Source: Yuukianura sp. NJ FZ-2021 (lineage: Eukaryota). Taken from it: a stretch of 64,000 bases of DNA. The DNA is taken from NCBI GenBank assembly GCA_046563655.1, contig CM102290.1:10974001-11038000 (forward strand), written 5' to 3'. The notes beneath the pieces were generated by a model. The model made no database searches. It had not been told where the DNA came from and saw only the letters and a program-made list of their open reading frames with translations. A program made the position numbers and the translations under genes. This document shows, piece by piece, positions 1 through 49,761 of the stretch (position 1 is the first letter of the stretch; every line of letters begins with the position of its first letter).

Positions 1-3000
1 TCCCTCCCACCCCATTGTTCTCTTCATTTTTTTTTTCAATTTACCGTTGCAAACTTAGTAATCAAAAACACAAAAAATTGCAAAGAATTAATTCTGGTCT
101 CAAAACCTCATCACTGACAATGGAAAAAGAAAAAATGATTTTTTAGCTTCCCAAATAAGTCGAGCAATTAGAGCAATACAACCGCAAATTAATTTAGCAT
201 AAAGGAGGCTGTAAGAATGATTATTTTTGAAAACGCTTTTTTTTAGAAACGTCACCCTAAGCATTTGACACAAAAAACTGTGCATGCGCAGAAACCGTTT
301 TAAAGAAAAACCACAGGTAGGCTACGGAAGACATGCAGTTTTGGAACTGGTCCACATTTGGGGGAATGGGGAGGGGGCAGTTGACCCCTCGCTTGACCCC
401 TGAATGATGCAGTGGAAGTTGAAAGTGATTTATCGCTCAATCACTTACTCCGCCCCCTTTTTTGAATCTTCCCGCACTCTTGTACAATGCAGGATGAGAA
501 CACTTTTGATTGAATTTAATGGGCGAACAAAAGAAACACTTTTTGAATCAGGAAATTACAAGTGTTGGTGTGCTCATCTCTCTCCCTCTCACTGTAATTA
601 CAATGGACATAATGGAAATTGCCTCACATCATGATGGACACTGAATGTTAATGAAATAAACAATGATTGTTTATGGTTCAAGCTTCGTTGCAAACATTTT
701 CAAAAAAGTTTTCTCGCGCCAACTATCACACCCAAGATGCAGCCAGTACTATTTGGTCTAGTCTGGATCTGGATTTGAGTGATCCACTTTGAAGGGTTTC
801 CGTGTCTCATTTGTTTTCAACTAAAAAAAAATATCCCGCCGATTTTTAATTTCTGGGAGAAAAATTAGAACCGAGGTAAAAACCTCGGAATTTAAAAAAC
901 AAATCCACCATTTTTTATTTAAAATTCTCAAATAAAATTTTCTACTCCCTTTCTAACTTTTTTCAAGAAATTTTTTTTTCCAGATCTTACGAAAACTTGT
1001 GTTTCAGAAATTCAGGTTTCGAAATTGTTTCTATTTCTGAAATGCATAGAAGTTGGGACAGTTTTATGAAAACTCTTTAATGGCACTTTGGTACATGCTA
1101 AGACTTTTCTATTTGAGCAGTTTTTAGTAGAAAATTGAAAACGTTGTGCTCACTTCATGTAAATGTACTCCATGAGTCTAAATATAAATAAACAAATTAA
1201 CTAATAAAGCAAATCAAATTGAAAAAAAAATTAATGACAGGCGGATGTTATCATTAGGGTTCTGAAGGCCAAACTGTAGTGTCCGTGGCTGACTTTCTCT
1301 CTGCTTTCTTCTTGATTTGGGTTGTGGTGAGTTGTGCGCGTCTTAGCAATTGACTCAGCTATGTTTCTGACTCTAATTGAGTCTTCGTTTGTTCATGAAA
1401 ACTGAACTCTAGTGTTCCAAAACACTTGAGAACATCAGAACCAGAAGGAGGGAAAATTCAAACCCTTTCCAATCAACTCCCAAACAAGACGGATTCACAC
1501 ACGATGCAATTGTTACTCAAAGAGAAAAGAAAGCTTGGATGTGGAAGAAGACAAAACAATGTTATTCAAAAATTCAAAAGTTCCCTCTCCTCCTGACGAC
1601 GCCTGATTGATGGATTGGATCTCTGTGATTAGCCTGGGAAGTGGTCCAAGCCATGCAGGAATCCTGTCGATCCATCATCCTGACCCTCAGGACCATCCAT
1701 AGCCTATCGCTCAAGTTCAAATCCACCAGCGCTCTCCTTTTCCCGCCGCTTGCACACTACCAACCACTTGCAGCGGGAATTGAACAAAATTTAAATTCAA
1801 AAATTGACTTTCTTGCTTTTCCAGTGGCATTGCCAACACACTAGTAACTTTTGTGTTTCCTAACTCCCGCCGCACTATCATCTTCAAAAGTGACGCACTC
1901 TGTCATTCGAAATGAATCTGGTAGTGACGGACAGTTGATGATGGATTGGGGTCTAATTGAATTCGGAAAATCCAAAATGGCGCCAAATTCAATTGATTCC
2001 GATGTCTCAGTTCTAGCCATAAGAAGAAGATAAAAGAGGGAATTATATTGACATAGGGAAATCATTTAAGATTCGATTTGTGTAATGCTATGTTGCGTTC
2101 ATACCAACATCATGTTTTTATTAGTATGTACTGTAGTAATACTAGTACATATATTAGTATACACCATTTTCTTTTAAATTACAAATTGTTAAATTTCACT
2201 CAATATAATTGCTAATATTATTCACACGCTATTTGTGAATGCTACGTTATGTTTATGCGTATTGCCTATTTTTGTAGATGAGATAAATTATTAAGTGAGG
2301 TCAGGAGTGTACTTGAAGTGAAAGCAAATTCAAAGGGCCCTTGGGACGTAACATTGTTGTGTGGACTCAAGCTGAGTGGGTCAGAAATTCCATTCGGCGG
2401 TAAAATTTAAACAAGCATGAAAACATATTGCCTCCATGACACTGACGGACTATACTGACAGTTAGACTCTACGTATTGCATTTCAATGAAGCCGAGTAAC
2501 AAGGTTGTAAACATTGAAAAAAATAATTAATGTTGTTATCAAATACCACCAAGATCCGAGTAACAAATTTAATAAATGAAATAGTAAATTTCATTTCCAT
2601 ACCGAAAAGAAAGTATGCTAACCCCAACTTTTTCTAAAGAAAAAGGAGAAAATTGTTGCAGGGATCGAAACAGCGACGAAGTCCTATAAAGTTACACTGT
2701 CAGCAGAACTTCCCCAGTTGCATCTCCCCCACTTCTTCCCCACCCCCACTCCAGCTCTCCCCCTCCAGTTCTACTTTCATCACGGAAACTGGAGCTGGGG
2801 GTTCGATTCCAGCTCGGTTCAAAGAACAAGCAGTGGTTGCATTGCTTTCTGCACAAGAAATGATTTGACTTGTATCTTTCCTTTCTCTCTACCCCTCCAG
2901 AACTTGAGTTTGATGGAGAGTTTTTGGGGGGTGAGGGGGCGGTGTGGGGGTGGGGATGGTGGGGGAGGACTGAATGAAAGGCCAGAGACGCGCCTTCTTT

Positions 3001-4099
3001 TAAATGAAGAACAAGGAAGAGGCATAGTCTGACGGATAGAAATCGATGCGGAGCAATTCGTTTTTTCGGCGGGTGATGTGACTACCCTAACCTTATGTCT
3101 TTCTCTTTCCTCGACTTCCGAGGAACAAATCCTTCCTCAACAACTTCTGTCCTTGTCACCACTCTCGGAACATTTGAAAATGTCGGAAATTGCCACATTT
3201 TTTTGGTTTCAAATGAACCCGGGGTTGTTCATATATTACGCAATCACGCATTGCCCTCCGGGGTGAATTTGGGTACTCCATGCTCTTGTAATTTAATCTT
3301 TCAGACTTCACTAGACTCAAAAATTCAATCAATACACGCCCTGTTTTTTGTTCCGTTGCGAAAGTAAACAACTGCCAATTTTTTAATGTAAAAACAAGAT
3401 ATGCTTCTTTTTGTTTTGTTTAACCAAATTGTTAACGTTGTTTTTCCAAAAAGAATGTTCTTCTTTTAAGTCATTTGTTTTTGTGCTAAAGGGACTTTCA
3501 CCTCTTGATGTTTTGCAATGAAAGTCCACTTCGAAAGATGAGTTTTCCTGGACATATCTCGGCTTTCTGGACCAACAAGTAAAGGACGGACGGTTTTGGC
3601 AGATTAGTTTACGTTTGGTATCCGTTCAGCACCATATTTATGGCCTGTCTACAAGTATCCGAGCAAAAGAGTCCAGGCATGGTGGCATTTGAGGTTTTGC
3701 ATGACTCAACTGCTGTTGCTAGAGAATTTCCTTATGAAGTCCCATTTTATTACCTATTGAAAACGGTGTAAGATGGATTAGTGTTCTTTTGACATACTGT
3801 GGGCAGCGCACTAACTTCTCATGGACCACCGCAAATCACCATCATGTCCTCCCGCACTTGTGTCCAAACTGGCACATACAAATCATAAATTCATTCCTTT
3901 CAATTTTCCCCCATATTGGGAGGCACAATTTATGGATTCCATTATCGAAGGAGCAGCGGGAATTATTTTCAAAATCGCTATGAACACCGTTTTGTTTTAT
4001 GACTTCGGCAACGAAAAATGAAAATTCACATCCCTTTTTAGCGGAAAAAGAAATTTTACCGAGAGGTCTACCCTCTCACACTAGATAAAGCAGACGGCA

Positions 4100-4425
4100 A
4101 AATTACGAAAGAAATCGAAACATTTAAAACCGAAACTACAAAAGTGAAAGCATTAAATTAGTGAAACAACAATATAAAACAAAATAAAAAACAAAACGAA
4201 ATAAAACATTCGAAAATAGAAAAAAAAAGAAAAAAGAGAAACAATACCATAACACAACAAAGTAACAATTTTGACTAGTCAAGAAACTAAACAGGAAGTA
4301 ATTAGAACCAACGAAAAAGTTGAAAAAGGTGAAAGGTAGAAAAGAAAAGTGAAAAATGACAAAAACAAAAGTAAAGGTGACAGACTACTACTAAAGGTAA
4401 AAGTAAAAAAAAAGCACAGGAAAGA
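4100..4425. repeat. A-rich low-complexity tract
   Basis: About 300 bp dominated by A runs broken by single G/C/T bases. Confidence 0.7.
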
Positions 4426-7400
4426 ATTGATTTGGCGCGTAGTTTGTTCTAATGAACAAAGTAGTTAATCATTTTGTGAAATTAGTTGATTAATGGGGGA
4501 GGATGGGCTGCTGCCATTGGTTTGTGGGCCCGACAGATAAGAAACCGTGGGAATTCCCGACTAAGTTCAGCCAAAGAAAGTTCGTTTCTTACTTTCTCCC
4601 TTCCGCTCCTTGCTGCCCACCAGTCATAAATCACCGTCTCAACTTTCCCAAGGTGGGACTTTGGGGGCGGGGGTGGGGCAGTTGGCCCCAACTTTTTTGC
4701 ATGAACATCATGTTTGGTGTGCTACTTGGGAAAACAGTGTGTGAGAATTGGGGAGGGGGGTGGAGCAGCGTGTATAGTTTTTTCCATTACTTAAACTGAA
4801 ACTAAATCCTTAAGGATTTTCATAAGATACATTACTCATTTTCTACACAGAGACGAAGAGCATTTAGACACAATTTAAGAAAGCGGGAAAAAATTCTCAT
4901 GCGAAGTGTTCTCAAAGGCTATGAGAGGGCAAAGGTTTAGCGATTTTCCAGACAACTGTGTGAGTGGACTAGGATTCGACCCTAGGTCACATCCATTTAC
5001 TCCTTACTTCCACTCCACCAACCCTCGTAGTCGTCACCTTGTTTTCATTTGAGAACTCCCTAGAAATCCATGTAGTTTCTCTTATTAAGATGACTTTGTT
5101 TATTTTTACAAGGGACTCAACACTCCCTCTCCCTTCGTCCAATCAATCATCTTAAACCAAATGGACTCAATTTGAAATTTCAAATTGGAGCGCCTAATTC
5201 TCCCCCGCTATTCACTCATGTTCTTCATTTTTTGAAAATGGAGAACATAAACCATGTGGATAAGCCCTTAAGCTCCCTCAAAATAAGTAGAAATAAAACA
5301 ATCCCAGGAAATTCAAAAGTATTAACACAATTCTAACCTTAACATGAACTCAGTTTTTACACACAAAGAAATACAAAACCAAAATTTTTAAACTGCACAA
5401 GTCATAATTCAGTGTCTTTATAATCTCGTCACGGGTCATTTTTGGTCCTACGAAATTAAAAAAAATCATTTCAGGAGTTATAAATTTTGGAAAATTTGTG
5501 AACAGCATTTTTTCACAGTAGTAACTGAGAAATATTTGAATTCTTATTTTTGTGGGCTCCCAGTACAAAAAATGAAAACTCAATATAGAATGGAAATTCT
5601 CATGTCCTTCGCTAGGACATATGTCAGTTTGTGCCAAATTGAAACTTGTTGGGCATTTGAATTTTGGCGGGAGAACATTTCAATTTGAATTTTGGTGGAC
5701 TGTAAAGTCAAGTCAAGTGTCCGCTAAGTTCTCCAGAGACTTCCGGTTGACAAATTGGAGGATGGGGAGATGTCATGTCGCTTGTCACGTCAATTGGGTC
5801 ATCCAAGTCCCCCATATACCCTCTTCAGCCCAAAAGTCTAATGAGACCGCGCCACTTTTCAAAATTTCCCGCTTCTTTCAAATTTCAAGCGAAACTCCTC
5901 GTTCTGGGTTAATTGAATTCCCTTGTGACTCCAATTTTGAACGTGTTGCTCAGTTGTTTCCAAATCAAAATAAACAACCAGAATCAAAATAAAGCCGAGC
6001 TGAGTTCAAGGGTCCTTGAAGTCTATCTCGCCCCCTCCAGTGACAGTTGTGTCCACGGTGCAACGGCGACTGTTTTTGGAAAAGGGCCGGGAGACTTTTT
6101 GAAAACTACGGTGGCGCTCTTTTTTGAAAATTGCGGTGAAAGTGAGTTGTGCCTCCGTGTAACTCAATTAGGACTAATGCTGATTCCGCATCTGTCCTCA
6201 AGGGATAAGGACTGACGAAACCAAACTGAACAGAGTGAGGTACACAGTTCTACTTGAGTTCAAAATTGGGGGCCCTTGAGACGTGACCTTTGACCCCTTG
6301 CGTTCCAGATCCCTCTTGGTTGGGTTAGGTTAGGCTAGGCTAGCCTTTGACCTGTCGAAACATCCCTCTTCCTCCAGTGACTAATTGGGTAGGATTAGTC
6401 CAGAGGCAGACAGAAAATGACATATGCCTGCGGAAGAAGACCCTTAAGGGTACTTAGGCTTCCCGCCCATGTGGTCACTCCCGGTGGTCAGACGGTGCAC
6501 GAACCACGCATGCGCTCTTCTTCCTTCGGGTTGTTAACGAGCCATGTCAAATCCGGTGCACTTTTTTTGAAGTTTTTGTTGTAGCATCTTTGAAAAATAC
6601 GTTTTTTCAGATTTCAGGAAAAACCCACAGGCAAAGAACAGCTTCTCTTGGTGAAAATTTCAGCTACGTTTTTTTTAAAGAAATTAAAATCTAACCAGTA
6701 AAGAAATTTCTTACGTAATTCCAGTTCTATTCAAGGTTAAAAAAAAGTAACATTCCCACATTTTGCATTTCACTTCAACGCGGATGACTTCAATGAATAC
6801 TGATCAAATAAAAAAAAATTGTGTTCATTTTGAAATTTAAAAAGATTAATAGCGAAAATCCACTTTTAGAAAAAACCTTAAACGTTAAAGCTGAATACCA
6901 TTTTTGTTACTATTTGCTTTTCAGATTTGTGGAACAGGAACGCTGATCCATGGGAATTGAAGGATAAGAGATATCGGAAGAGGAAAAGACTGTTTTGTTA
7001 GTCTTTGAAATTTCTTGAAATGGCGCGGAGAATTGAATTTTCAAAAATGCCGCCATCAAAAGCCACTTCACTGCCCACCCTCGCCATCGAACACTGTCCT
7101 GTGTAGTGCTCTGTAGTGGCCGTTTGTTTTGATGGAAGGGAGAGTGACGGCCACTTTATTTATTGGGATTAAGGCATCGTCCCTTGAGTAAACACTAAAA
7201 GGCAACAAGACGCTTTTACTACCCTATACCAAATAGGTCAACACCAAAATCATCAGCAACAATTTGGTCAACAAAATGGCAGACGACCAAGGGTCCTCCT
7301 CAATCCATTTTCTCCGAAACTGTTGTTGATCTAATTTGGAGTTGACCAAATTCTTGTTTATGAAATCACAACTGACCTCTGGAGCTTCAAGTTGATCAAG

Positions 7401-10400
7401 TCCAGAAAAGCAGCCTCTGTTCAAGTGACCTCTTCTCAATTCCCTCTGAGACTTTGGCGGGGAAAAAAGATGAAATGGGATTCAAAATTTCCCGCTCTCC
7501 CCTCCACAGCGTCTTTGCTACAAATTTTCCTTTTGCTCAAGTGTCATTGATTGGTCCACAGAGACTAGAAAGTGCAAAGAATCAACACTCAGCAAAAACT
7601 TTGAACTTTGACCTGCCCTTCCCGTCAAACCAAAGTAGGAGGGGAAAGCGCGAAAAAGTGCTGGGAAAATTCAAATGGTACCATCTGCCAACTTAAGATC
7701 CATTTCACCAGAAAAAGCGCCAGGAAATTCAAAATTTAAATCTCCTGGACAAATCTTCACAGTGGAAGTGTCACAGTTACTTTACAGAAAAAAGGAGAGA
7801 AGCTTTGAATTATTTGAATTTTTGAGCAAAAAGGAACTGAAAGGTGGCACTACTCACTCTCTCATTTGTTGAACTCCAAAGCACCGCTTATTCTTTTGTA
7901 CAATTCAAGAAAAATGGACTCTGTGCTGAGTGGTTTCAATCAAAAGGAGATTCTCCGATTGGTTAGAAGCGATTCAGCGATTTTGTTCAAACGGATTCAG
8001 CGATTGGTCCATTTTTCTTCCTTTAGCAAAAGCACCTGCTTGAGTAAGTGGCTGCACTTTGACAAGTTGCGTTCTTTCAGAGCTTGACAGAGTGAACTGC
8101 TATGCATTAGCATTTGCTTACGATGGGAACTGACATGGGGGGATGGGGTGAATTTGAGTAAACCCCGAAAAGAAGTGAGATTTGGGTGGAGTGCAATAGG
8201 GGGTACGGTTGTCAGGGGGTGGAAATTGTAATTTCCATTCATTAGTTTGACCTATTGACCCGAAGAAGAGCTAGGAAGGGAAGTGACTGTCTTGTATTTG
8301 TCTTGGATCGTCCATTTGTGGAGATGGAGATGACAAGATTAGGGTGTGAGGGACATCCACCAGCCCAACGGAGACTCATCCATCAAATTCAATAAGGGAT
8401 CAACAGGGGTACTTGAAGGGTCCACACAAGATCCATTTCCTGGAAGAATAAAAAAGAGTACGAAAGGGACTTGGGAACGCCAACTCTGAATTCTGAGAAT
8501 GTTGAAACAAGATTCCAAAATCTCACCTCACACCCTCATGCCTAACCACCACCATCATCTCCCATTAATTACAAACGACTCTTCATCTTCTCACAGATCA
8601 GAGATCACTTTCACACCTAACAACACTCGTTCACGTCCAAAAAGGAAATTTCATTCAAACAGTTCAAAAGAAAGGTTAACGAAAAATATGTTCTAAAAAG
8701 TCATGAAAACGCAGAGAAAAAGATAAGAAAGTTTCGGTTTTTCAGTTTTTCTTCCTTGACTTTTTTGAAGTTTGAAAATTTTTCATATGCGTAGTCTAGT
8801 CTTTTTTCTGCATGCAACTTCATTGCTCTGCTTTAGAATTTCTGGAAAAGAGAGATTTTGCTTAGATTCTAAATTTTTTCTTCAAACATTTTTGAAATTC
8901 CGGTTTGAGAAAACCCGACAACTGGAAGCTCTTCGGCGTGAACTCTGGACCTATTTTTGGAAACTCTAAAAAACTCCAAAATTTTCAAAAACGGTTTTGG
9001 GTTTAAAAATATTTGGGGCGACGTGAGACGGAGCTGCGTGTATGGTTTACACGGTTAAGGAATTTTGTTTTTGGAGATCCGTGTGACACTGTGTAGTACA
9101 ATTGACATGAAAAGCATGAAGGTGTCAAGATCATTACTCCGCAAACATGACATTTGAATCATGTCCCAAAACAAAAGTGACTGACGCGCATGAACTTTGA
9201 GAATCTTCTGTCAGGTCAACTCACCTGGCTAAAACACAAATAATCTTGACTCATGGCTAGACGACTCATGACTCATGAGTCAACACTTGAGCTCATAATT
9301 TGTTATGGCTATCCGGGAATCATAAAAGGCCCAGTTGTAATAAAAAGTAAAAATTATTCTTTTTTGTTTCATAAAACTTTAGTGTCAGGAATTCACAACG
9401 ACTCTGCTCATCCCAATTATTATTCTCCAAGGTTATGCGCGGACTGGCAAAATGCAGTCTGCGCATGATCCAAGTGACTCCTGCGAAGTTTTGGCACCAA
9501 GGAAGATGGATTGCACTGTTTGATATGCCAGGTCAGGTTTCGGACAATGTTGTAAAGTAATTGAATAGGGAGGTCATCACAGGTGAAACTTAGAGTAACG
9601 AGGGAGGAGGAAATTGGCAGTAAAAAGATGCAATTAACGTGGATGTAGGTAGGTAGTTGAGCAAAGGGAAAATTTAAAAAAAAAACAAATTGGAGAGTGA
9701 AATTCAAAAGGAAACCAGTTTTTTTAACGTTTTTTTTTTGAAATGTCGTCGTGGGATGCCGTAAAAAACCTCTTTCGATTTGTCATCCTAGAAAAGGAGA
9801 CAGGGTGCGACGGACAGATCTCATCACCTCCATAAAACACATTTAAGGATGAGCAGAAAAATACAATAAATGACAGTACTAAAGTATGAAGGAAACGGAA
9901 CGTAAAAAACCCTCCGTTACTACTTTTTTTAAACAGAAAGAAAGTTTATTTTTCACAAAAAAAAGTTATGATCTGTCTACGCATGTTGTTTTTCCTTCTA
10001 ATTTTGAAGATCAGCTTCACCTCATCTTCTTAGAAGATGCAACTTTAACATTTCGTTTCGAAAAAAGGTGCGGGAAAAAATAGCGAATAAATCATCCCCC
10101 ATCTCCAGTTTCCTAATGGGAATAAGCCTGACTCTCCAGGTGAGACTTTATGTTGGGGTTTGTAAGGTGACCCCTTTAAGGGGTTCGGGGTCAAAGGGCC
10201 CCCCTCAACCCCGCACCCCACAAATTGAGCTCCAGTGTCCGTTATGACCAGCAGGGGGAAGAAGACAGTTTAGGTGGACCTTAAGTGTTCTTTATGTGGA
10301 GGGTTGATGGGGTCATGTTCATTTTCTCACAGTGGTGGGCCTCTGGATCATAACCCGTCGTCCGCCGCCAAGATTTGAATCTTTCTTGAAAAAATTCAAG

Positions 10401-11786
10401 GTGGGCTCAAGTGGTATAGAGTTACGCAACGCTCCGCTTTCCAAAACGTCCTACAAATTTTAGTTTTTTTTTTCGTTTAGTTGATGCTGCCCAAAGTGCC
10501 TTGACAACCGAATTGTATTTCCTACAACAGGTTGTCCAATAACTCGGGGTTTTTCAAAAATCTTGCTTCTCAATATTCTATTTACCTTGGCTTCAAACAA
10601 TTTTCCCCCCAATTTTGTTTATGCTTTTTTCTCCATTTTTTTTTCAAAGTAAATCGCACAGGAATATAAAAAAAAAGTGAACATAAGCCAAGCCAAAATT
10701 GTGAAAGAAATGGAGTTGAAGTTTAACCGTTTTCATTTTTCAAAATTTTGCAAGAATTTGAGAAACCGGATTTATTGGACAATCTGTTGTAGAAAAAACA
10801 TTTTCTTTGTTTACGAACCTTGATGTTGCCTTTCAGATTTATGAAATGCTGTTTGAAAATTTGAGCTTGCGAAACTGTTTAGTGCAAGTTTTGAGTTCGT
10901 GCTCTCACATCGCACTTCCAAAGCTGCCACCCAAGTAATTTGGGGGTGAAAGTGAAAAAAAATGTTGTAAAAACACTTCAATTTGTCTCTTCTTACTGAA
11001 AGATTAGACTTGTAAATTGGTAAAAGAGGGTAGGTCACGGAAAAGTGATTTTTTTTGTAAGTCCAAACAAGATTTGCATTTGGAAAAAAATTTGAACATG
11101 GTCCACAGAGTTGAATTGGGGATTTAACAATTTTGAAATTTCCACAACTGATCTCTCAGCCTCACTTTCGAGAAGATCATCTTTTTGCATTAGTCTCACA
11201 TGAAACCGGAATTCAAATGATTGAATCCCACCAAGATTCATTGACTCTCACGTTAATAGCTTCTGAGTCCAAAGAAAAAGTGCCGACAACGGCCGTTCTT
11301 ATTCTTATGGCGGAACATAACTTACCGTAAAACGTCTAATAAACCCCGTCAAATATAATACCGCCAGAATCAAGAAAGGCCAAAGATACAACCTTCGAGC
11401 TCTTGTTAGAAGTTTTACGGTATTTGCCATTAGATCCACTTCATCGTTTCTCGCCCTTTTAGTCATGTCCCTAACTCTCAAGTGCTAAAAACTTCCTCAG
11501 CAGAATGAAATTTAATGCCTGGTTATGTTAATTTTGTGCATGAATTTAAGTTTTGTAAGTCATTACTGCCTTGGCGAAAGGAATTGGTTTTTTAGAGGCC
11601 CTTAAGTACCCTCTGGACACATTTGCTCCACGGACACCCGCAGGGCTAATGAACCTGGCCCTCTCCAGGGAGTCAGTATCTTTTTGTTCGAAATCGTACT
11701 TAAACTGATACGGTGAATCCCACTACTTCAGATTATGTGTTAACGGGTTACGGAATTTGAGGTTTTCAAAAACGAAAATACTGCAA

Positions 11787-11862
11787 GGGAGCCCTTGAGA
11801 ACCGAAGATTCTGGACGGGAGCCCTTGAGAGTCAAAAAATTATGGATGGTAGCCCTTTAAGA
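11787..11862. repeat. Short ~30-bp tandem repeat (2.5 copies)
   Basis: GGGAGCCCTTGAGA at 11787 and 11817; GGTAGCCCTTTAAGA at 11848. Confidence 0.7.
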
Positions 11863-14800
11863 TTAGGAAGGGACTTGTTGAGATATCCGAGACAACGGAA
11901 TAAAGTAAAAGATCCTATATTTTAGAAATCCGGTTTGTGTGTGACTGAAGGCCCCACAGAGTCGAGAGGTCAAAGGTCACAAAGGAAGATGAAGGCTTGA
12001 AGCACTTGGACCAGGTCAGAAGTCACTGAAGAAGTCTTGAGAAGATGTTTTAAAGTTACAAAAAATGACATCAACGAGGGAAGCACTGTTGATGTAACTT
12101 GTTCATTGTGTAAAAACTTCCTCCTTCCAACGCAAGTGTAGAGTTCCATACTGCTCACGAGAGTCGGATCGAAACGGATTTTTATGACATAAAAATAATT
12201 TCGAAAAATTTTCGAAAAGAAACAAGGAAAAAGCGAAGCATTATCGTCGTAAATAACTTTTTCAACTGATTCGATTTCAAAACGAACTAGTGATTAAAAA
12301 TCGAACCGGACGGAACCATTCATACTGAATTCTAAAAACAGTTCGGCTGATATCGCACGGAACCGACCATAAAAACCACGGCAAACCGGTATAGAGGCGT
12401 TCGAACCAAAACGACACAATACCGAACATCATTTCGATCCATGTGATGTTCCTATGAGTTGTGACTTTTTGATGGAGAACGAGATTCACTTGACACTAAT
12501 TACCCCCTTTCCTCCTTTGGTTTTCTAACACGTCTTTTTCCTCAAAAAACTTCATCTTCTTCCTAATGCATACAAAGAAATAAGATGAATTTCAAAAAGT
12601 CGCGCCTTCTGACACTTTCAAACTGCCACGCCAAGGAGCCAACATTCAAACGCACTTTCGTTAGCACTTAAGTTGGTTGCTACTGGTGAAAGATCCCACG
12701 TCAATCTTCTTGTGCCGCTGGTGATGGACAGGACAGTCGAGAGAGCATTTTGACATGTCATGCGCTTCTCACCAGCAATAGCTTTTTAATTCATTTCCAC
12801 TTTTCGCTCCAAATTTCAAATTTGCAAGTTCATAGGATTTTCTATAGATTTGAGTCATTCATTGTTGACTCTCTCGAAGAGGACGCGGGAAGGAAGTTGA
12901 TCCAATTCTGTAACTGTCAACTGCATTATTCGCGGCGGTTTGTTTGAATTTGGCGGTGGTTAATCTATGGAAAGTCAAATACACTTTAGAACTGATTAGG
13001 AACCTACATTGTTATACTCAAATTCCAATGTTACCTTCTGATGTGGCTACAAAATGTTTACTCCAGTTAAAAAAGACCGCCGAGATTTGAATTTGTTTAG
13101 ATTCGAAATTAACCGCCTAGTATTTGAACAGGGGAGCAATGAACCAAGAATTTTCAACTGCCGCCAATGTTCAAATAAACCGCTCCCATTAAATGTCCAC
13201 TTTTTACTTCCCGTCATTTCAAAAGAAAAACAGGAACTGTGACCGGACACTTATGGGCGGACATCCATGATTCATTGAGGGAGGACCGACAGTCATGGAC
13301 GGATATGAATAGACGTTTTGTGTGGATAAAACGTTTGAGAACGTTTTAGTTGTTTTCCGCAATTCCTCGACAATTGTGAACGGACATGGCAGGACGGTTC
13401 ACTTCTGGACGGAAACTGTAGAGCTGATACACTTATATTTATGGACAAGTTTATACTGTTAACATTACGTTGAGGTTTCACTAGCGTATACATCCCTCCA
13501 TAAGAATACTGGTTCAAAAATTTCCGTCCATGAGGATCATGCACTTCCCAGAAATGAACCAAAAGTTCTAAAATTTTATTCACTACGCATGAGTAGATTG
13601 TTCATGTGCAGTAAACGACGGGCGTATGGGCTTTATGAGGTAGTTACACTGTTTTAGTGGAGGGAAATTTTGAAAACAAATTGTCAATAAAAGCTAAGTT
13701 TTAGTGACAAGATGAGTCATGCGACTAGTCCTGACCTTTGACACGGTTCGATCCTTACGTCATGTACAACAAAAGTTATACTTTTTAATGGACGGTTTCT
13801 TATGTGTGTGAACCGGATAGTTTTTAAGTTTTCTTTTAGTCAAACAGAAGATATGGACGATTTCTTTGAAATGCTTGTACAGCAGATTGCCTCTTATCAA
13901 AAGACGAATCCCAGAAGGGAAGTTTTTCAAAAAACTTTTTCAAAATTCTTTTTTTTTAATTTTTTGTTCGAAGGCGTTGAATGACTTCCTGATGATCGTT
14001 GAGGTTCACCCTATAGGTCACACAAGGTCAAGCCCTAGTGACAGTTTAGTCAATCTCGAAAAAAGATTAACAATGTTCCTAACCTTGTTAAAATTTTAAC
14101 TCGACATTCTTAACTGCCTTTTCATCTTCAATTTTTGAAATTGACGCGCCCCAAGTTAAAGCTTTTCTTTAAATTTTCAAATTTGGTTTAAAAAAATTCA
14201 TTCATTTTTTTAAGTCTTGTGATATTGAGCAGAACAGAATGTGCTGAAGGGCTTTAAAAAACCAAAACAAAATTTGGAAGGGTTGCGTGATTCCACTTTG
14301 TTTAAATTCAATTTTTGGAAACAAAAAAGACGATTTGTTTGAAATTTATCACTTCAATTTATTTTCAAAATGCACTTTTTCAAAAAAGAAATTCTTTTAG
14401 ATCCTTGTAATTCACTTTTTTTCATAAAGCTTCAACGTTTCTAGTTCCAAAATTTCAAATTACCATCAAACTTCTAGAAAAAATGATGTGTGAACTAATT
14501 TAACAATTTTCAAAAACGCGTTTCCGAAGTTTGCAAAATTTCGGTTTTAACTTCGATACAAAATTGAAGAGGAGATTTACGGCTTTCTGCTTTCAAAATT
14601 TTGAAATAACCATTTCGCAACCAAAAAATTAAAATTGGCTCCAAAATTTGAGCTTGTACGGTTAATTATTGAGCTGTGTAGGAACAAGTGCTTTTACATG
14701 TATTTTTATGAAAGTATTCAAACATGAAAAAAAAAACGTAGTTAAAGAGGGGTGACTCCGTTAGTATCTATTTTTTGAATGTTTATCAAAGGAAGTATGG

Positions 14801-17417
14801 TGGAGTGTTTGTGCTAGAGGGGTTTAATTTTGGTTTGAATTTAATATGGCGGGAACGGCGGGAGAATTTGAAATGTTTGAAAAAGTGCTCAAGGCATGTC
14901 CGATTTCCTACCCCATTCTCTATGTGAGAACGCAAACTTTAAAGTTAAGGGAGGGCGAGTACGGTGTTTGCTCTAATTCAGAGATGTTCCAGAGCAGATA
15001 ATATTAACTTTCTTCCAGTGTTTATTGGAACTTGTTCTAAAAAAGAAGAACAACGTTCTAAAATTCTAAGCTTCTAAGAGTCTACTACTGCTAGACGATC
15101 AACCGAAAAGATACTTGGGCTGTTCAAACTGTTCAAAAAAAAAGTTGGAACAAGGGGGAGAAGTTTTCAAGTTGAAAAAAGAAGATAATTTCCTGAGGCC
15201 GGATTTTCTCCCCTGCTAAACTCCGTTTCCATTTTCTTTTTTTCAAACTTTGGCTCCTCTGCCTACTCATCCTTAACAGTCTCTGGTTTTTCAGTGTTTT
15301 TGAGAAGTACTTTCGACAAAAAAAAATTGACTGAATTTTTTTTTCAACTGAAAATATTTTCAGTAACTGGAAGGGAATGAATTCTCTTTCAGCAACTCAC
15401 GCTTAAGTAGTTCGTTAGAAAGCCAGGGAAAACAGTCACATTTCAATCACACCAACTTAACTTTTACACATGTGAGCAATTAAAGGGAAACAAGCCTTTT
15501 TCAAAAACATTCTGAATTTTCAAATTCTGAAAAACATGCCAAAGACAAGTAGACAAACAGAGATTCTTAAGTCGAGTGCTTACACCAATCACCAAACACT
15601 CAATAACGTCAATTTTAACAGTTTTAAATTTCCTGGAAACTCCCGCCATTTAATAGAATGCTGAACTTTACGTTCAAAATTTGTACAACTTTGACTTTTT
15701 TCAAAATTTCGACAGTTCGAGGAAAAGGGAGAGGGTGGGAATGTGATTGTTATTTGTTAAGCCTAGTATTCACCAAATTACACCATAAAAGTTGTTTTTA
15801 CTTTCTTTTTTTTCAAGTTTTTGCAAGTTCATTCCATTTTTAAAAGTAGTGTTACTTTTTTTTGCAATGATGATAAAACAAAAACATAAATATTAAGCCC
15901 AGTACACACAAAGTTGCGAGAAACAACAAATCTTTTTGTGGTGTCGAGTGTTTGAATTCTATATAACAGCGGCTTGGAAAATAAATCGACATGAATTCAA
16001 ATATTCCCGGCAATAATTAAGGTAGGTTAGGTTTGCTAAGTGATGATTTTAATTCTTAACTCATATCATTTAGTAACGTAGAAAGTATATTTTTTAAAAC
16101 CAGTTTTGAAATCTGAATTGATTGAGAGGCGTAATAATTTTTTTTTGAAAAAACAAAATTGGCCTGTTTTCAAAACAGAAACTTTTTGTTTTGAACAAAC
16201 TTTTTTTAACGAAAGTGGAATTGAATATTTATGCTTCAATTGGAATCTTAATCCAAATCTGCCTAGGGTTTGTTTGAACTTTCTAAGGGCCCCCTCTCCC
16301 TTTTCCTAGAGAATTCCTCAAGTTTCGAGCTTATTTTGCTCATTTTTGGATCACTGGGGACCCTGCAGAGTTACTTAAGGGTCTCAATGGTTTTTCAATT
16401 GGGTGGGCCATGGGCCTACTGCCGGAGTTTGTTATTTTCTGATGATGAGGTTAACCCTAAGACCCCTTAAGGCCCTTGGAAAGGTTTCGGACTCTCAAGG
16501 ACGGTCACTAACTAACCCTACTCATAGTGGACATAATTAAACTTCACTAAACCTACCCAAAACACTATTAAGTACCCACATTTAAGTGACCGAGTATAAG
16601 AAAATGGTAAAGTAATTAATTAATTAATGGATGTCCATACGTGGCCGTCCATAAGTGACTGGCTATTTTCTTGGACTTTTAGGCTTACCACCCTGCCTGC
16701 ATGCCAGACTACTATACGCACTGGTCCTTGAACTGACGGCCCTTCACTGGATGGTATGTGCTGTAGAGACCCTTAAGGCCTAAACAGCAACTGAGGCCAT
16801 GATCCAGGGAGATCCAGAGACCCTTGCGTGTCGACCATGGATCGAGTTTGAGCACCAAGCAGAACAGCGCCAGATCTTGAATTTAGGGAATTCGAATTCT
16901 CCCGGCGGCTCACAAGCCAAGAGGACGGACAGCCACAGTGTTTTTCCCCTCAGTTGATCCGGAGAGCCCAACCAGAATGGACGTCGTTCCGACCGTCTCT
17001 CCGCCAAAATTCAAATTCAAAACTTCCCAAAGTGAGAGTTGTTTCAAAGTTTGGAAACGTGACAGTTTCAAAGTTTCGCATATTGACAGTTTTCAAATCG
17101 TTGCGAAAACGTTATTTCCCGCTCTTTGAAGTTACATTAACTACCGGCAAAGGGTTGGCGAAAACCATTTGAAGTTCTTGAAAAGTTGACCAACTTGAAA
17201 TTCAGACGTTAAAGAAACGTAAAATTGTGTGCTGGGATTGGTCGTAAAGTTCGTGCGTTAGTGTTACTGTTGTTTGTTACTCGGGTTGTTTGTTATTGTT
17301 CTGTGCTGAGAGTGCCCAGTTCTGTATTGTCCACATTTTGTTGTTTGTTATTGCTCGTACATTTACGTTTACAACTCGTTAGAAGTGTTAGTTCGTTCCA
17401 TTACTAAACAGTGAGTG

Positions 17418-17793
17418 TGACCTTTGACCTTGACCTTTACAGTGTCAGTCAGTGTCAGTTGACAACTTATTAGAAGACTTTAATTGTTGTATTTAATATA
17501 CAATTGGAGGGGTGCCGGACGTTGTGTGAACGTTTTTTAGTGAGACCAGTGAAAGTGAGTTTTCATTTTTTTTCCTCCCTCTTTGTCTCTCTTTGTTTAC
17601 TTTTGAACAAGATCGAACATCAGGACCGTTATTGTTGTAATTGTTTACAACTAATCAAGTACTCTGCAATCAATTAAGTATTTGGATCCTCATCTGCTAC
17701 ATAACACTGTCCATCATCATCGTACTGGGAATCTGGGTATCGTTTTCGTTGGATATGATCTGTGTCTCTCTTTTCGTTGGAACAATAATGAAG
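17418..17793 (+). promoter_or_regulatory. Putative promoter / non-coding first exon of plexin-B
   Basis: Perfect donor AAG|GTAAGT at 17793/17794; two Inr-like TCAGTY words at ~17445-17460; TGACCTTTGACCT DR1 at 17418-17430. The + strand looks more G/T-rich from ~17.2 kb onward (qualitative). The link to plexin is inferred and the start is approximate. Confidence 0.45.
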
Positions 17794-18462
17794 GTAAGTG
17801 TCAACTTTTTTATTTTGTTTTGCTGAGTACATCCAGAAAGTACTTACGTTCCTACATCGTTAGTTTACAGTTTTGAGTACAACGACAACCTGATTTACAG
17901 ATTTACTTCAAGTGAATGTAGAAACGTAATTAATTTAACTGTCGATCAGATGTACCTGAAAGTTTCTTTGATGGAATCTTGTATGAATTGTTATTTCATG
18001 CTAATGCCCCAAGCAAGAGTTTCTTTCTAATGAAAACGATTCTCGTGATGTGCCTCCCACAGTCCACGGTACAGTAAAACTCTTCCAGAGAATTTATACG
18101 GGCTAATTTCGTTTCGGAAGATCATGTTAAATCAATGTGATTGCAAAGGACAGTGGCAGAGTCAGTTTGTTATTGACTAGAAACATGACTTTAATTCAAA
18201 AACGTGTTGAATTTGTTAATCCTGCGTTCGAGTAACAGTTTATAAAAGGCTTAATGTCTCTGTTGTGACCAGGTAGACGTTGAGGATTATACTATCTATT
18301 CAAGGTTACGGAACTACAGGTCAGCAGAAGTTCATTAACATAAACAAGGTAAGGCTGCTAAAATAGTAATTCACAGTCTTCTAATTCAAAGTAGGCGGGA
18401 ACTTAATCGATTACTGTTTGTAGATAGATGGCTCCGGTTAGTTGTTCATGGTTTATCGTTGT

Positions 18463-18736
18463 CTAAAGGAGGTCAGGGTTGCCGGTCATCGTGTCAGCTT
18501 GTAGAGGTAGGCCATTGTTGAGAGCTTGGTGTTCCAACATCGCCTTTGTTGACGAAGGAGTGTCTTCACGAGTCCGATCTGGACAAATACTTTGATGTAA
18601 CTGGAGTTCATGGCGCGGAAGATGATGGACCGTGTTGTATTTGCACGGAAACATCTGCGGAATTTGACCTCTCGAAGCTTGATTAATGAGATAGAGTTCT
18701 CGACATCGTTGGACGTGCACACTGAATCGGCTTTTC
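18463..18736 (-). CDS. GTSF1/Asterix-like CHHC zinc-finger protein, coding exon 2
   Basis: Acceptor ctattgcag|G at 18737/18736. Splicing restores finger 1 CPYNSTHLIRKSRFSVHVQRC and gives finger 2 CKYNTVHHLPRHELQLHQSICPDR, both C-x5-H-x9-H-x3-C (zf-U11-48K type). TAG at 18463-18465; spliced CDS 408 nt = 135 aa. Confidence 0.88.
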
Positions 18737-18854
18737 CTGCAATAGAAGTACCGTGAGACAACTAATTATCAATTGTTGGTTCCTTAGTGGCTAATTGTCT
18801 TATTTCGCATTAATTTCATTGATAGAATTTTATGACTATGTCAATCAGGTTTAC

Positions 18855-18988
18855 CTGATGAGATGAGTCGAATTGTATGGACAGCTGAACAGAACTTCGT
18901 TAGGCGCCAGGGTGTAGCAAATCAAGTTCGGCGAGGTCGAGGTCACTTCGTTCTCTCCGAGTCCTAGGAAATCTTCTTCCATTTCCAT
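18855..18988 (-). CDS. GTSF1/Asterix-like CHHC zinc-finger protein, coding exon 1
   Basis: ATG at 18988 (in-frame stop upstream). Encodes MEMEEDFLGLGENEVTSTSPNLICYTLAPNEVLFSCPYNSTHLI(R). Donor AG|GTAAAC at 18855/18854, phase 2, followed by a 118-nt intron. Confidence 0.85.
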
Positions 18989-19396
18989 TTCCTTGAGAAG
19001 CAGAGATGTCCCGTATGTGGCTAAAAGCTGATGCTAGCGTTAGCAGTTTCACTAGAGGTCAGAGGTCAACTGGACTTAGGCAGGCTGGAGAGAGTGCAAT
19101 GGTCACTGAGCGAGGTCGTGTAGAGGAAATGCGTTCAGGTTCTGGATGCGGAGCGGTTTTTATAGCCTCGGTTTCTGTTCTACCTTTGCCGTTTCTACTC
19201 CCCAAGTTGCAAAAAAGTTGAAACTGCAGATCCAAAATTTTGCAAATGCAAAATTACCGTTCACTTGTGTCTCAAAACTGAATTTTCTCATAACATTTGC
19301 AAAGATGCACAAATCCATATTGTTTTTGCATTTTTAGTTTTTTCTTCCAAGACACTGTGAGTCACTTCCAGTATTGGTTAGTGCATCCACATCGGC

Positions 19397-19649
19397 CTTG
19401 AAGGCTACTATTACAAAAATGGATTTGTATCGACTTTAACCTAACAAGTTTTTTTTCCCCCTTTGAACCAAAGTTTGAAAATTTTACTCAATTATGTATG
19501 ATTTCCTTTTTGCAGCAATTGAACTTCTGAGAACTCCAAACAAACAAGGTTCAATTTCACAAAAAGTTGGACTTAACGAGCGACAAGTCATGTTCCAGAA
19601 ACGTAGAGTTTTTGAAGTCAATTGGAAAACAATCTTCGGTCTTTCTTAA
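19397..19649 (+). pseudogene. Possible degenerate homeobox remnant
   Basis: After acceptor tttttgcag (19515): IELLRTPNKQGSISQKVGLNERQVMFQKRRVFEVNWK..., resembling homeodomain helices 2-3 with KIW replaced by M. Upstream LEGYYYKNGFVS (19397-19432) resembles the end of helix 1. Confidence 0.3.
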
Positions 19650-38300: not shown

Positions 38301-40277
38301 AATTGAGGGAATTTCTTGAAATGTTGGGGAAATTTTCTGAAATGTTGCGGAAATTTGGGGGATTTTTTTAAATCTTGAAGAAACTGGTGAGATTTGGCAT
38401 CCGTTTTCAAAAATATTCGTATTTTGTGTAGAATTTGATTTCACTCGAGATACGGTGAACTGTCCATTTAGTAAAATTTTGAGTTGTGGAAGTGGGAGTC
38501 TCCGTAGGAATGAGTTCAGAGAAGGGAGCCCTTAAGGGGCCCATTAAAAGTACTTTCAATTTCCTCTGGCAGAGTAAACCAGATTTGAATCTTGCTCCTT
38601 GGCGAGCCGTGGATCATCTTCCGTTGTGGCTCAAGTTCTTAGAGTCTAAATGGCCGTTGTTGTTGGGCAAGGAGGCGGCTGAAACTGCGTCCAGGTGCCA
38701 TGGGCCCTTGAAGGCAGCTACTACCCTTGAAGGAACTCCATGGAACTCCTTCCAAGCTGTCTCGAGTCCCATTAGACGAGCTTCAAATCCTACTCTCCAC
38801 CATATCATTATGAATCCCACACTAATTCATCTTCAGTCCAAAATGCTCCTCTAAACGTTCACGCTGACTAGGTGGTTTCATCATGTTGGGTCTCCCTGCC
38901 ACACTACATCTCAAGGGCCCATTTTTACTTTCAAATAAAACCGCCTCATTTTCCGTGATCTCAATGTGAGGGACTTGACACCTTAAGGGCTCACATTCCT
39001 CGGCCATGGACTTGGTCCAGCCAAAGTGACCATATTTTTTAAATAAGGTGAAGCGTAATTTGAGTCTAAACATAGCTTCAATTGTGCCTAAAACTAACCT
39101 AACTTAGGGTAAGATAAGTTTTAGCGAACCATAAGCCAAAATTAAGAACTAAGCTAATCTTAATGCAGCTTTAACTACTTGATCTAATGTTGAGCAAATC
39201 CGTGTTAGGTTTAATCGTTTTTGAGTCAAGCGCATTGGAAAATCTGGGATTTGTCCTCTGTTTTTGGTTTTCGAGGTCAAGGTCATTGCGAGGAATGGAG
39301 AGTAAATTCTTGTTTTGATTTCCAAGTGAGACTAAAAACATGTTTAGGTTCAGTTTTTGTGAGGATTAGGTTAATGTTGGTTGATTGAAAATTTTTGAAG
39401 AAAATTGGAGAAATTTAGAGCAGGAAACGCCCTTTTCCCGCCTCTTTTGTCTAGTTTTTGGACGCTAGGTTTAGGACGCTCCAAAAGTAATGACCTAATG
39501 GACGGCTATTTGAAATCTAATTTACGTTCTTCCGTTCTTTGTTTACTGAAATGGACGGAGGTGCGGTGGTGGGCTTTTTTGAAGTGGTTGGTTATGGGAG
39601 GACCACTTGTTTTTCAATTTCCTCTCTGATCAGGCTCATCCTTCCAGAATTTGAGTAATCGCTACTCAAACTTACTCACTCACTCACCATAAGGTACCAC
39701 TGTGGTACTACACTTTTTGAAAATGCATTTCAAAAGGGGTTTGGAGTGGTCCTTAAGGGCCCTCTCATGAACTTTTTTTAGAGTTTGGATGTGGAGGACT
39801 AGGACCGGAAGAGGAGGGGATTTAATTGTGCTTCTTCTGTACTAATTGACAATTGCATTTGGAGATGAAAGTTTTACCGAGATCGGATCTCACCGGCTTT
39901 CTCACGACCACACCAAGTCAGCACTGGTAGTGCTAACCATGTGCTGAACAACTTTTGAATTCTGGCGCCTTGTGATTTTTTAAGAAAAGAAGCCGAAATT
40001 TTAATTCAAATCCAAATTTAGAGCTGGGTTTTTAACTTTTTTTTTTTTTTGATTTTCTTTTTCAGTTTGAGATGTTGAAATGCTATCAACTGGTTGGAAA
40101 TATTTTGTTTTTAGGTGTAATGCAAAAACTAAGTTTTGAAGTGTTGGAAATATTTGAAAATGGATTTTGCAATGTTTAAAAATTTTTTTCCAAAATTTGT
40201 TGAAATAGTTTTTTCAAAAATGCTTTGTGGTTTGTTTCAGATTTAAAACGTTTTGAAGATTCGGTGGTGAGCGGAAG

Positions 40278-41561
40278 ATGATTTGTGGGCGGCGGAGAGG
40301 CCGATGGTTCCATCTTGGCCTAGCACTTCCAGTACCCCTGAGACCCCTTGCTCTGCTCGTCAGTGTCACTCTAGTCCTTCTGCATGGGGTCAAGTTGGAA
40401 GGAGCCATGTCAGGAGCCCAGGCCAAGTCATCGTCAACTGCCAACGGTCGCAGTGGAGTCATCTCGCAGTTCGTCACGGTCAACTCCACTTTCATCCTCA
40501 AGCATATGGCTGTGGACTCGGTCACGGGTCGTGTCTACGTTGGTGCTGTCAATCGACTGTATGCTCTGGATCCAAGTCTCACCCTAGAAGCTACAGTTCC
40601 CACTGGACCGAAACTGGACAATCCCAACTGCCATGCGTCAGGATGCTCAGCGCCACATGAACCTGGATCCAGTCACACGCCAGAATTACTCACGAACAAT
40701 GTCAACAAAGTGTTGGTGGTGGACGCTAGTTCCAGGACACTTATAACATGTGGGTCAGTGGCTCAGGGCGCATGTCACAAGTACAATTTGACAAACATTA
40801 CGATCCCACCCGAATTTGCTCCGCATGCTGTCGCAGCCAATGACGACGGAGCGTCTACCTTTGCTTTCATTGGTCAAGCCAAGTACTCGGCTTGGGCTGT
40901 TAGCAACGTCCTCTACGTGGGCACAACCTTTACGAGTAACGGTGACTTTCGGGATGACGTTCCAGCCATTTCGAGTCGGAACCTCTACAACCTCGAATTT
41001 GCCGAGTACTCTTTTGCTAAACAGAGCATGCTCCGAATTGACGTCAAGTACCGTGACCACTTCCTCGTCAACTACGTCTACGGCTTCAACGCTTCAGACT
41101 ACGCTTACTTTGTGATTGTGCAGAAACAGTCGTATCTTCATGGATTTGAAGAGCAGGGCTATGTGTCACGACTCGCTCGAACCTGCATCACTGATGCAAA
41201 CTACGACTCGTACACAGAGGTCACGCTGGAATGCGTTGGCCCCACCAGCTACCACCGTCCAAGTCCTGGAGCCACCCACTTCAACCTCATCCAAGACGCC
41301 AAGATCATTCCAGCTCGAGAGGACTTGGCCCGAAGTCTGGGCATTTCCCCTGGTGACCTCGTCCTTGTCGGAGTGTTTTCTCAGTCCAAAGGGATAACGA
41401 ATGAGCCCTTGGCCGACTCAGCAGTATGTGTCTACTCCCTTAAGGACATTGAGCTCAAGTTTACAGAGAACATTCACATGTGCTTCAACGGAAGTGTGGA
41501 GAATCGGAACATGGACTACATCTCAGGCCCGATTTTGGATGGGAAGTGTTTGGAACCAGGG
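40278..41561 (+). CDS. PlexB: Plexin-B, first coding exon (signal peptide + N-terminal ~400 aa of Sema domain)
   Basis: 428 codons from ATG 40278 to donor GGG|GTGAGT at 41561/41562 (phase 0); acceptor tttgtttcag at 40240. Hydrophobic signal LALLVSVTLVLLHGV, then plexin Sema motifs VYVGAVNRLYAL, TGPKLDNPNC, NNVNKVLVVD, LITCGSVAQGAC, VAANDDGASTFAFIG, DVPAISSRNL, YVYGF, SRLARTCITDANYDSYTEVTLEC, SAVCVYSLKDIELKFTENIHMCFNG. Subtype assigned from recalled similarity to arthropod PlexB. Confidence 0.95.
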
Positions 41562-41995
41562 GTGAGTTTGAATTTTTTTGAATTTTTTTTTAAAGTTTTG
41601 TTAGAAGTTGTGCCTATAGTAGTACTTATTCTTATTCTTTTCTTGCATCACTGGAATGTAAAAGTTCCTTTAATAGCTCTCTCAGTCATAAAATGGTTTT
41701 GAAACTGGGAGTGAACAAGGTAGAGATTCGTATCTTGGACAAGGGAAAATAGTAACTTGAATGTTGTTTTCCAATGAACCAAGGCGAAGGGGTTGGAGAA
41801 AAGTTTCAGGGTTCGAGGAATTCAAAATCCCCAGTGGGTTCTGGGCAATTTTTACTTCGCATACATTTGACCCACTTTTAATTTTTTTATAGTGGGCATA
41901 ATTCTGTAGAAACAAAACTGCATAATATGCTGATTTAGATAAGAAAAAATATCTGTTATATTTAGTATCTACAGAAATCTGGTGTTTGTTGGTCC

Positions 41996-42295
41996 CAGTG
42001 TTGTATATATTTCAGGGTGGGGTATTTTTTCGTTTTAATGAAAGAATCTGAAATAAATTAAAAAAAAACTGAAAAACTGAAGAAAACTGAAAGAAAGTGA
42101 AATTAATTGAAAATTTCATCTGGTTTTTTTTTCATTTCATCGAAACAAATTAAAAGAAAGTGAAAGAAATTGAAATATTTCGCTGAAATATTTAAGCTTA
42201 TCAGTGAAATAAATTGAATGTATTTTCAGTTTTTTTTTTTACTTTTTTTTTTTACATTTTTCACCGAAAAGTGAAATATTTCAGTTGTAACACTG
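41996..42295. mobile_element. hAT-type MITE (300 bp)
   Basis: Ends CAGTGTT...AACACTG; flanking 8-mers GTTGGTCC (41988-41995) and GTTAGTCC (42296-42303) match 7/8, as expected for an 8-bp TSD. Interior is packed with TGAAA/TTTCA repeats. Confidence 0.75.
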
Positions 42296-42310
42296 GTTAG
42301 TCCGTGTGTA

Positions 42311-47583: not shown

Positions 47584-47760
47584 GCCGCTGGAAATATTCC
47601 AAATTTTTGTGACGTGGGACTAAAAATTTCGGGTCAGATGCCGATTAGTGCTAGTGCTGGAATCGTATTTCCAGAAACACAAGTAACGTCCGTGACTCTG
47701 GCGACAACGGAACAGCATACCGTAGCCTTTGTCGGTACCAATCAAGGAATCATCAAGAAG
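47584..47760 (+). CDS. PlexB: Plexin-B coding exon 2 (Sema domain continuation)
   Basis: Acceptor tttgtgatttcag at 47583, donor AAG|GTAAGC at 47760; 177 nt, phase 0-0. Translates [59 protein letters not shown], with the plexin-type TVAFVGTxxGxxKK motif. In frame with the previous exon; not in the ORF track. Confidence 0.93.
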
Positions 47761-49575: not shown

Positions 49576-49761
49576 AGTTGGACATCGGAGGTCGCAAGTA
49601 GCATTGGAGGTCGCAAGTATTCGCTAAGAGTTGGGCATTGCAGGTCACTAGCATCAAAATCAATTCAGAGTTGGGCACTGGGAGATCACCAGGATTAGCT
49701 AAGAGTTGGGCACTCGGAGGTCAGCTCACGAAAACCAGCTAGGAGTTGGGCATTGGATGTC
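49576..49761. repeat. Interspaced degenerate direct repeats (core AGTTGGGCAYTGGAGGTC)
   Basis: Cores at 49576, ~49600 (partial), 49629, 49669, 49704 and 49744, with variable intervening sequence. Confidence 0.7.

Follow-up and report, generated by a model that had tools for sequence, protein, structure and literature searches.

PIWI proteins depend on cofactors of the GTSF1 family to turn on the cleavage or silencing of their targets. Which PIWI is served differs from one GTSF1 paralogue to another, and this specificity is ascribed to the protein's central and C-terminal region. The hallmark of the family, according to passages of bioRxiv 10.1101/271270 and PMC9539491, is a pair of tandem CHHC zinc fingers, and excerpts of PMC9385479 describe fingers of this type as being carried only by U11-48K, TRM13, and GTSF1 and its paralogues. 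For mouse GTSF1, the same excerpts report that RNA binding and the potentiation of PIWI depend on R26, R29, K36 and K39, and that the tryptophans W98, W107 and W112 are needed for tight PIWI binding; a role for aromatic residues is also given in part of PMC9539491. Two other descriptions bear on what follows. The mouse paralogues GTSF1L and GTSF2 bind their partner through a zinc finger, as stated in passages of PMC9539491. Nematode GTSF-1 is described, in passages of PMC13650160, as a protein without the aromatic residues that binds RRF-3 instead of PIWI and has a short C-terminus in some species; according to excerpts of PMC9539491 it is also without the basic RNA-binding residues.

Here we describe a small spliced gene of this kind from the window, by which we mean the whole 64-kb stretch of DNA that was analysed. 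The reading that we favour, and that we consider reasonably likely, is that it is intact, has two exons and encodes a protein of the GTSF1 (Asterix) family; its expression, function, partner and nesting within a neighbouring gene we infer. The finding is of modest interest, as that of a divergent GTSF1 family member.

Structure of the gene

The gene lies on the minus strand, and its parts and flanking motifs are as follows:

18855 to 18988, minus strand: coding part of exon 1, 134 nt, with the ATG at 18988-18986
18737 to 18854, minus strand: intron, 118 nt, GTAAAC...TTGCAG, phase 2
18463 to 18736, minus strand: coding part of exon 2, 274 nt including the stop codon TAG at 18465-18463
19159 to 19164, minus strand: TATAAA, a candidate TATA box some 170 nt before the ATG (a motif match, pointing to a putative promoter)
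19109, minus strand: Inr-like TCAGTG, a motif match upstream of the GTSF1-like gene
18190 to 18195, minus strand: ATTAAA, a candidate polyadenylation signal some 270 nt beyond the stop codon (a motif match)
18244, minus strand: TATAAA downstream of the stop codon (a motif match)

Joined by these coordinates, the two exons total 408 nt, comprising 135 codons and the stop, and they reproduce the original prediction of a 118-nt GT-AG intron that unites two exons in an intact 135-residue reading frame with two CHHC fingers. The list of open reading frames shows the second part alone, again as had been noted, in the form of an unspliced 100-residue frame (18463-18765); scans that consider open reading frames only miss the gene, since the intron divides its first finger.

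Exon 1 encodes an acidic N-terminal extension of 35 residues (seven acidic, none basic) and the first half of finger 1. The intron interrupts an Arg codon within this finger (AG, then G), and exon 2 encodes the rest of finger 1, a linker of 19 residues, finger 2 (18645-18583) and a 39-residue tail. Both fingers have the exact C-x5-H-x9-H-x3-C spacing, at residues 36-56, where the intron falls, and at residues 76-96. The start codon is preceded by A at -3 and followed by G at +4, and no upstream ATG, in-frame or out-of-frame, is present in the 212 nt before it (19200-18989).

Chance was assessed separately for the fingers, the splice junction and the coding signal. The CHHC motif occurs only once in the six unspliced frames of the window, as finger 2, compared with a mean of 0.04 in mononucleotide shuffles, four of 100 of which contain at least one. 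For the junction, every combination of a GT with an AG lying 40-1200 nt away was considered on the minus strand between 18400 and 20000. The proposed junction alone unites two genuine half-fingers; the one other hit is simply finger 2, joined trivially at the final codon, and 20 shuffled sequences gave no hits. The coding signal was measured by a codon-usage score trained on the plexin-B exons of the same window. The true frame scores +24.8 bits, against +1.9 to -48.6 for the five other frames, and random non-coding segments of 405 nt have a mean of -49.5 (SD 21.2), with none of 2000 reaching +24.8. The score is positive in each part of the protein, being +9.7 for the N-terminal part and +11.6 for the tail, where it barely separates frame 0 from frame +1 (+8.4). 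We regard the structure of the gene, and the presence of its two fingers, as established.

Membership of the GTSF1 family

Comparison with the Pfam model zf-U11-48K (PF05253), a check put forward with the original prediction, places finger 2 above the cut-off (24.9 bits, compared with 21.1), and aligns the part of finger 1 encoded in exon 1 with positions 2-12 of the 25 in the profile, at 16.8 bits. No other Pfam domain was found in the protein at E <= 0.01. External searches were made with the exon-2 product, or with its relatives, as query rather than with the spliced protein. For exon 2 alone, the best sequence hit among solved structures is mouse GTSF1 (6x46, E 0.02), the second-best being U11-48K (2vy4, E 0.19). 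A profile built from exon 2 and 12 relatives (see below) is far more sensitive, matching both fingers of mouse GTSF1 6x46 at E 2.9e-17 and the GTSF1 chain 9nhb_E at E 3.6e-11, with U11-48K at E 0.0016. The entries 9nhb and 9nhc are of a SIWI-piRNA-target-GTSF1-Maelstrom complex. Since the profile matches both fingers of mouse GTSF1, the window protein is a member of the GTSF1 family, with the hallmark tandem CHHC fingers near its N-terminus; the Pfam and profile matches together establish the family membership that had been proposed for this spliced, intact tandem-CHHC gene.

The AlphaFold2 model of the exon-2 product, in which residues 1-50 have pLDDT values of 89-95, comprises one helix that extends from finger 1 over the whole linker, followed by the hairpin and helix of finger 2. 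In this model the 19-residue linker continues the finger-1 helix. The top-ranked fold matches of the model are 6x46, 9nhc_E and 2vy4, all of them non-significant (best E 0.16).

Alignments with mouse GTSF1 identify R45, R48, R55 and E58 as the counterparts of the RNA-binding residues R26, R29, K36 and K39. The claim that finger 1 keeps its basic residues thus holds for three of the four RNA-binding positions, which the window protein has in common with mouse GTSF1; the fourth is occupied by Glu (E58), adjoined by R57.

Relatives with a long linker

An exhaustive phmmer search with the exon-2 product against 1.84 billion representative proteins gave 16 hits at E <= 0.001, the best of them at E 9.1e-07 and 38% identity. 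No hit reached E 1e-10, and no close relative was found among these proteins. A word-index homologue search with exon 2 gave no candidate, and a word-index search with the alignment of relatives returned three proteins, all of which were already members of that alignment. PF05253 is recognised at E <= 0.01 in nine of the 16 phmmer hits and above the cut-off in five. Four of the hits (P0004, P0010, P0015 and P0017) are repeat proteins or TRAFD1/XAF1-type zinc-finger proteins without PF05253, and were left out of all alignments. The remaining 12 relatives were aligned with the spliced protein, the full-length ones being P0011, P0013, P0014 and P0016. P0014, which has no name, comes from the springtail Allacma fusca; a look-up in the Atlas, from which the exon-2 product is absent, shows P0014 adjoining clusters named gametocyte-specific factor 1 and 2, which serves as a lead only. 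In P0011, Arg takes the place of the first Cys of finger 2.

The four full-length relatives compare with the window protein as follows:

N-terminal extension: 22-60 residues in the four full-length relatives, 35 residues in the window protein
Linker between the fingers: 19-20 residues in the relatives, 19 residues in the window protein
Tail length: 173-257 residues in the relatives, 39 residues in the window protein
Trp in the tail: one to six in the relatives, none in the window protein
Phe or Tyr in the tail: present in the relatives, none in the window protein

The 19-residue linker and the N-terminal extension had been taken as signs of divergence. This does not stand, as both are common to all four full-length relatives and are traits of a clade rather than peculiarities of the window gene. 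The four also have the same finger spacing, and a linker that starts C-R-x-x-Y and has a central Gly, but they are only 25-35% identical to the exon-2 product. The window protein is a new, divergent member of the known GTSF1 family, within a sparsely sampled clade in which the linker exceeds that of the solved GTSF1 proteins by 6-8 residues.

These relatives also bear on the splice. In tblastn comparisons P0011, P0014 and P0016 match both exons (exon 1 at 18916-18857 and 18904-18848), and the match to P0011 breaks at the proposed intron, with residues 50-69 corresponding to 18916-18857 and residues 71-144 to 18735-18514. Five further relatives that are fragments defined by open reading frames (P0003, P0005, P0006, P0007 and P0009) reach N-terminally past the second His of finger 1. 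All five are without the first Cys/His half of the finger, and their similarity ends at the position of the window's acceptor; for four of the five, the tblastn match ends 14 nt beyond the acceptor, in translated polypyrimidine tract. We infer that these five fragments are read-through reading frames of genes that have an intron at the same site in finger 1.

Searches for further loci in metagenomes yielded none with P0003 as query, and four loci obtained with P0002 were rejected, as they share only the seeded peptide of 8-10 residues, have flanking stop codons and contain no CHHC motif. Separately, a short peptide at the end of finger 2, H-x3-C-P-D, is shared by the unrelated protein P0004 (375 residues) and the locus L004:3001-3102; it occurs three times in a repeated unit of P0004 and yields misleading weak hits to the tail. 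A full-text literature search found no paper joining Gtsf1 and Collembola. Given that 1.84 billion representative proteins include no close relative, spliced GTSF1-like genes with a long linker may be under-annotated in basal hexapods.

The tail and alternative readings of the gene

The original prediction had emphasised that the protein contains no Trp and that the aromatic PIWI-binding tail is missing. Both features are found: there is no Trp in the 135 residues and, for the frame as read and if there is no further 3' exon, no Phe, Trp or Tyr in the 39-residue tail. The short, aromatic-free tail is real for the frame as read. When set against the four full-length relatives it is also the feature that is peculiar to the window protein. 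Six of the 39 tail residues are acidic and three are basic, and the AlphaFold2 model of the tail has pLDDT values of 56-75 and a single low-confidence helix. A tail of this length could mean that the gene is truncated, decaying or incompletely modelled.

The first two of these possibilities come together in the idea of a truncated GTSF1-like duplicate that is silent or recently dead, still open only because it is young, and functionless. Such a duplicate would suit the truncation of the tail relative to all four full-length relatives, and the missing close relative in the protein libraries searched, but we consider it unlikely in view of how much else is preserved. All eight zinc ligands are intact, as are both splice sites, the start context and the 135 open codons, and the in-frame codon-usage score lies above those of all 2000 random segments. 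The gene still has its intron, which rules out a processed retrocopy. An origin by mobile-element capture was considered and rejected, as no flanking repeat pair that would point to it was found in 15-23 kb.

Incomplete modelling would require a donor within the exon-2 tail, leading to one or more 3' exons that encode a long, Trp-containing, PIWI-binding tail, in which case the gene would be an ordinary GTSF1 paralogue. We judge this to be rather unlikely. It is true that all four full-length relatives have tails of 173-257 residues with Trp in acidic contexts, and that P0005 and P0009 stop 18 and 22 residues past finger 2, respectively, whereas the related P0014 goes on, which suggests that there is an intron at this point in those lineages. 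A GT is present in the window gene at 18538, 15 residues after finger 2. When scored with a rough donor matrix of unfitted weights, however, this and all other GTs of exon 2 are negative (-3.75 at 18538 and -2.68 at 18569), compared with +3.8 for the donor of the intron. A downstream exon supplying a Trp-containing tail, which had been named at the outset as the observation that would count against a tail-less protein, was sought in the window by tblastn with the full sequences of the relatives, and nothing convincing was found on the minus strand downstream of the gene. P0012, moreover, aligns weakly with the window tail all the way to its final residue, finger 2 and tail together giving 26 of 69 identities.

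The same comparison drew attention to a minus-strand similarity at 10975-10799 to the finger-2 and post-finger region of P0014 (19 of 59 identities, two gaps). Considered as a second GTSF1-like copy or a tail exon, it is without the zinc ligands and was judged to be a chance match, although it could be a very degraded second copy.

A fragment of another CHHC family, U11/U12-48K or TRM13, is very improbable, for although the matching Pfam model is named after U11-48K, and 2vy4 is the second-best solved sequence for exon 2, the protein has two tandem fingers, compared with the single CHHC finger of U11-48K and of TRM13, together with no other Pfam domain, and the clade profile favours GTSF1 over U11-48K (E 2.9e-17 against 0.0016).

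Genomic setting

The neighbouring gene is on the plus strand:

17226 to 17793, plus strand: candidate non-coding first exon of plexin-B, with a putative start set by the onset of G+T asymmetry and the donor AAG/GTAAGT (17793/17794)
40241 to 41640, plus strand: plexin-B exon, with the acceptor ...TTTCAG/A (40240/40241), ATG at 40278, signal peptide and Sema domain; 3' end approximate
47584 to 47763, plus strand: next plexin-B coding exon, with the limits of the tblastn match
63516 to 63653, plus strand: further plexin-B coding exon, with the limits of the tblastn match; the gene runs off the window

The best match for this gene is a protein of Allacma fusca, at 71% identity. Among the 120 proteins listed, the best 114 bear plexin-B-type names or no informative name, and named arthropod plexin-B entries are 49-64% identical, compared with 37-39% for entries named plexin-A. 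Because the plexin-B-named entries stand so far above plexin-A in this wide search, the identity of the neighbour as plexin-B, as originally proposed, is established. An identity as plexin-A, suggested by the best solved chain (6fkm, 'Plexin A', E 3.5e-74), was overturned by the wider search; the library of solved structures alone would have misnamed the plexin exon at 40,278-41,640 (plus strand).

The relationship between the two genes depends on where plexin-B begins, and for this we turned to strand composition. The excess of G+T on the plus strand, with the number of 500-bp windows in which it is positive, is as follows:

1-17,200: -0.010, positive in 14 of 34
19,300-40,240: +0.098, positive in 36 of 41
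41,700-47,580, confirmed plexin-B intron: +0.062, positive in 9 of 11
47,770-63,510, confirmed plexin-B intron: +0.122, positive in 30 of 31
40,278-41,640, Sema exon: +0.002, positive in 0 of 2

At +0.098, the stretch of 19.3-40.2 kb thus has an asymmetry like that of the two confirmed plexin-B introns (+0.062, +0.122). In a two-segment likelihood analysis the change point falls at 17,225 (2-unit support interval 17,025-17,250), and twice the gain in log-likelihood is 119. Placing the change at 19,150-19,500 instead costs about 18 log-likelihood units. As evidence, strand composition is indirect, and the small gene itself takes up part of the stretch that decides between these positions. The sharp onset of asymmetry at about 17.2 kb, together with the strong donor at 17793 and the acceptor before 40241, favours a start for plexin-B near 17.2-17.8 kb.

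The GTSF1-like gene would then lie antisense within the first (5'-UTR) intron of plexin-B, an arrangement that strand composition and a plausible donor/acceptor pair make moderately probable. The alternative is a head-to-head arrangement, in which plexin-B would start just above 19.2 kb. Of the original proposal that the gene is nested antisense in plexin-B intron 1, therefore, the identity of the neighbour stands, and nesting is favoured by strand composition and the donor/acceptor pair. In our description, the GTSF1-like gene meets the 5' edge of plexin-B head-on and most probably falls within the 5'-UTR intron of that gene.

Some features of the plexin-B region merit description in their own right. 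The plus-strand G+T excess is strong and sustained over 17,200-64,000 across the plexin-B introns, with a per-kb GC skew of up to 0.52 (56-57 kb), and neither 1-17.2 kb nor the Sema exon shows it; it looks like a transcription-linked strand asymmetry, much larger than that known from mammals. At the peak of GC skew (0.52), the minus-strand frames of 56,760-57,273 translate as HFPISATN-like repeats, which probably reflect a tandem or low-complexity repeat in a plexin-B intron. Short direct repeats are present at or just before the onset of asymmetry, on the plus strand at 17,040-17,090 and 17,285-17,356, comprising a tandem pair of 24-nt units and two 17-nt copies 55 nt apart. Together with Inr-like TCAGTT motifs near 17,455, these may be promoter elements of plexin-B.

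Comparison with known GTSF1 proteins

By analogy with characterised members of the family, the window protein would act as a small cofactor for a small-RNA pathway of the germline, with the basic face of finger 1 binding RNA as in other GTSF1 proteins. Since the aromatic residues of the central region and tail, by which the GTSF1 of fly and mouse holds PIWI proteins, are missing, any contact with a partner would be made through the finger/linker region, as for mouse GTSF1L and GTSF2 and for nematode GTSF-1 with RRF-3. Alternatively, RNA might be bound without the recruitment of PIWI.

A bolder proposal, which we put forward as speculative and improbable, is that the gene represents a tail-less GTSF1 paralogue, evolved in a hexapod, that has kept the RNA-binding finger and lost the PIWI-binding region. 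It might then contact a different partner through its finger/linker region, in an arthropod parallel to GTSF-1 and RRF-3, or act as a competitor that occupies the RNA sites of GTSF1 and does not activate PIWI; its site at the start of plexin-B could result in mutually interfering expression of the two genes. If this were true, a natural paralogue that has the fingers but no central and C-terminal region would provide a test case for what the fingers do alone, and the nematode example of partner rewiring would be extended to arthropods. The more immediate value of the finding lies in the annotation of small spliced GTSF1-like genes.

Among known structures, the window protein most resembles mouse GTSF1 (6x46) and the GTSF1 of 9nhb and 9nhc. 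It is likewise a small protein, with the same two N-terminal CHHC fingers and exact ligand spacing. There are differences, however, in the linker, which is longer than in mouse GTSF1 6x46 and in 9nhb (HMMER gaps of six and eight residues, respectively), in the acidic 35-residue N-terminal extension, which the window protein has and mouse GTSF1 does not, and in the tail, where mouse GTSF1 has W98, W107 and W112 for PIWI binding and the window protein has 39 residues without aromatics. No shared genomic neighbourhood was seen for the springtail protein P0014, which is on a contig of 41 kb, the Allacma plexin-B being on one of 420 kb.

With respect to the tail, the closest parallels are nematode GTSF-1 and mouse GTSF1L and GTSF2, which likewise lack an aromatic tail or do not use one. 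The nematode parallel is incomplete in two ways. The partner of nematode GTSF-1 is RRF-3, whereas the window protein belongs to an arthropod lineage and has no known partner, whether an RdRP or another protein. Nematode GTSF-1 also lacks the basic RNA-binding residues, whereas the window protein, in this respect closer to mouse GTSF1, keeps three of the four.
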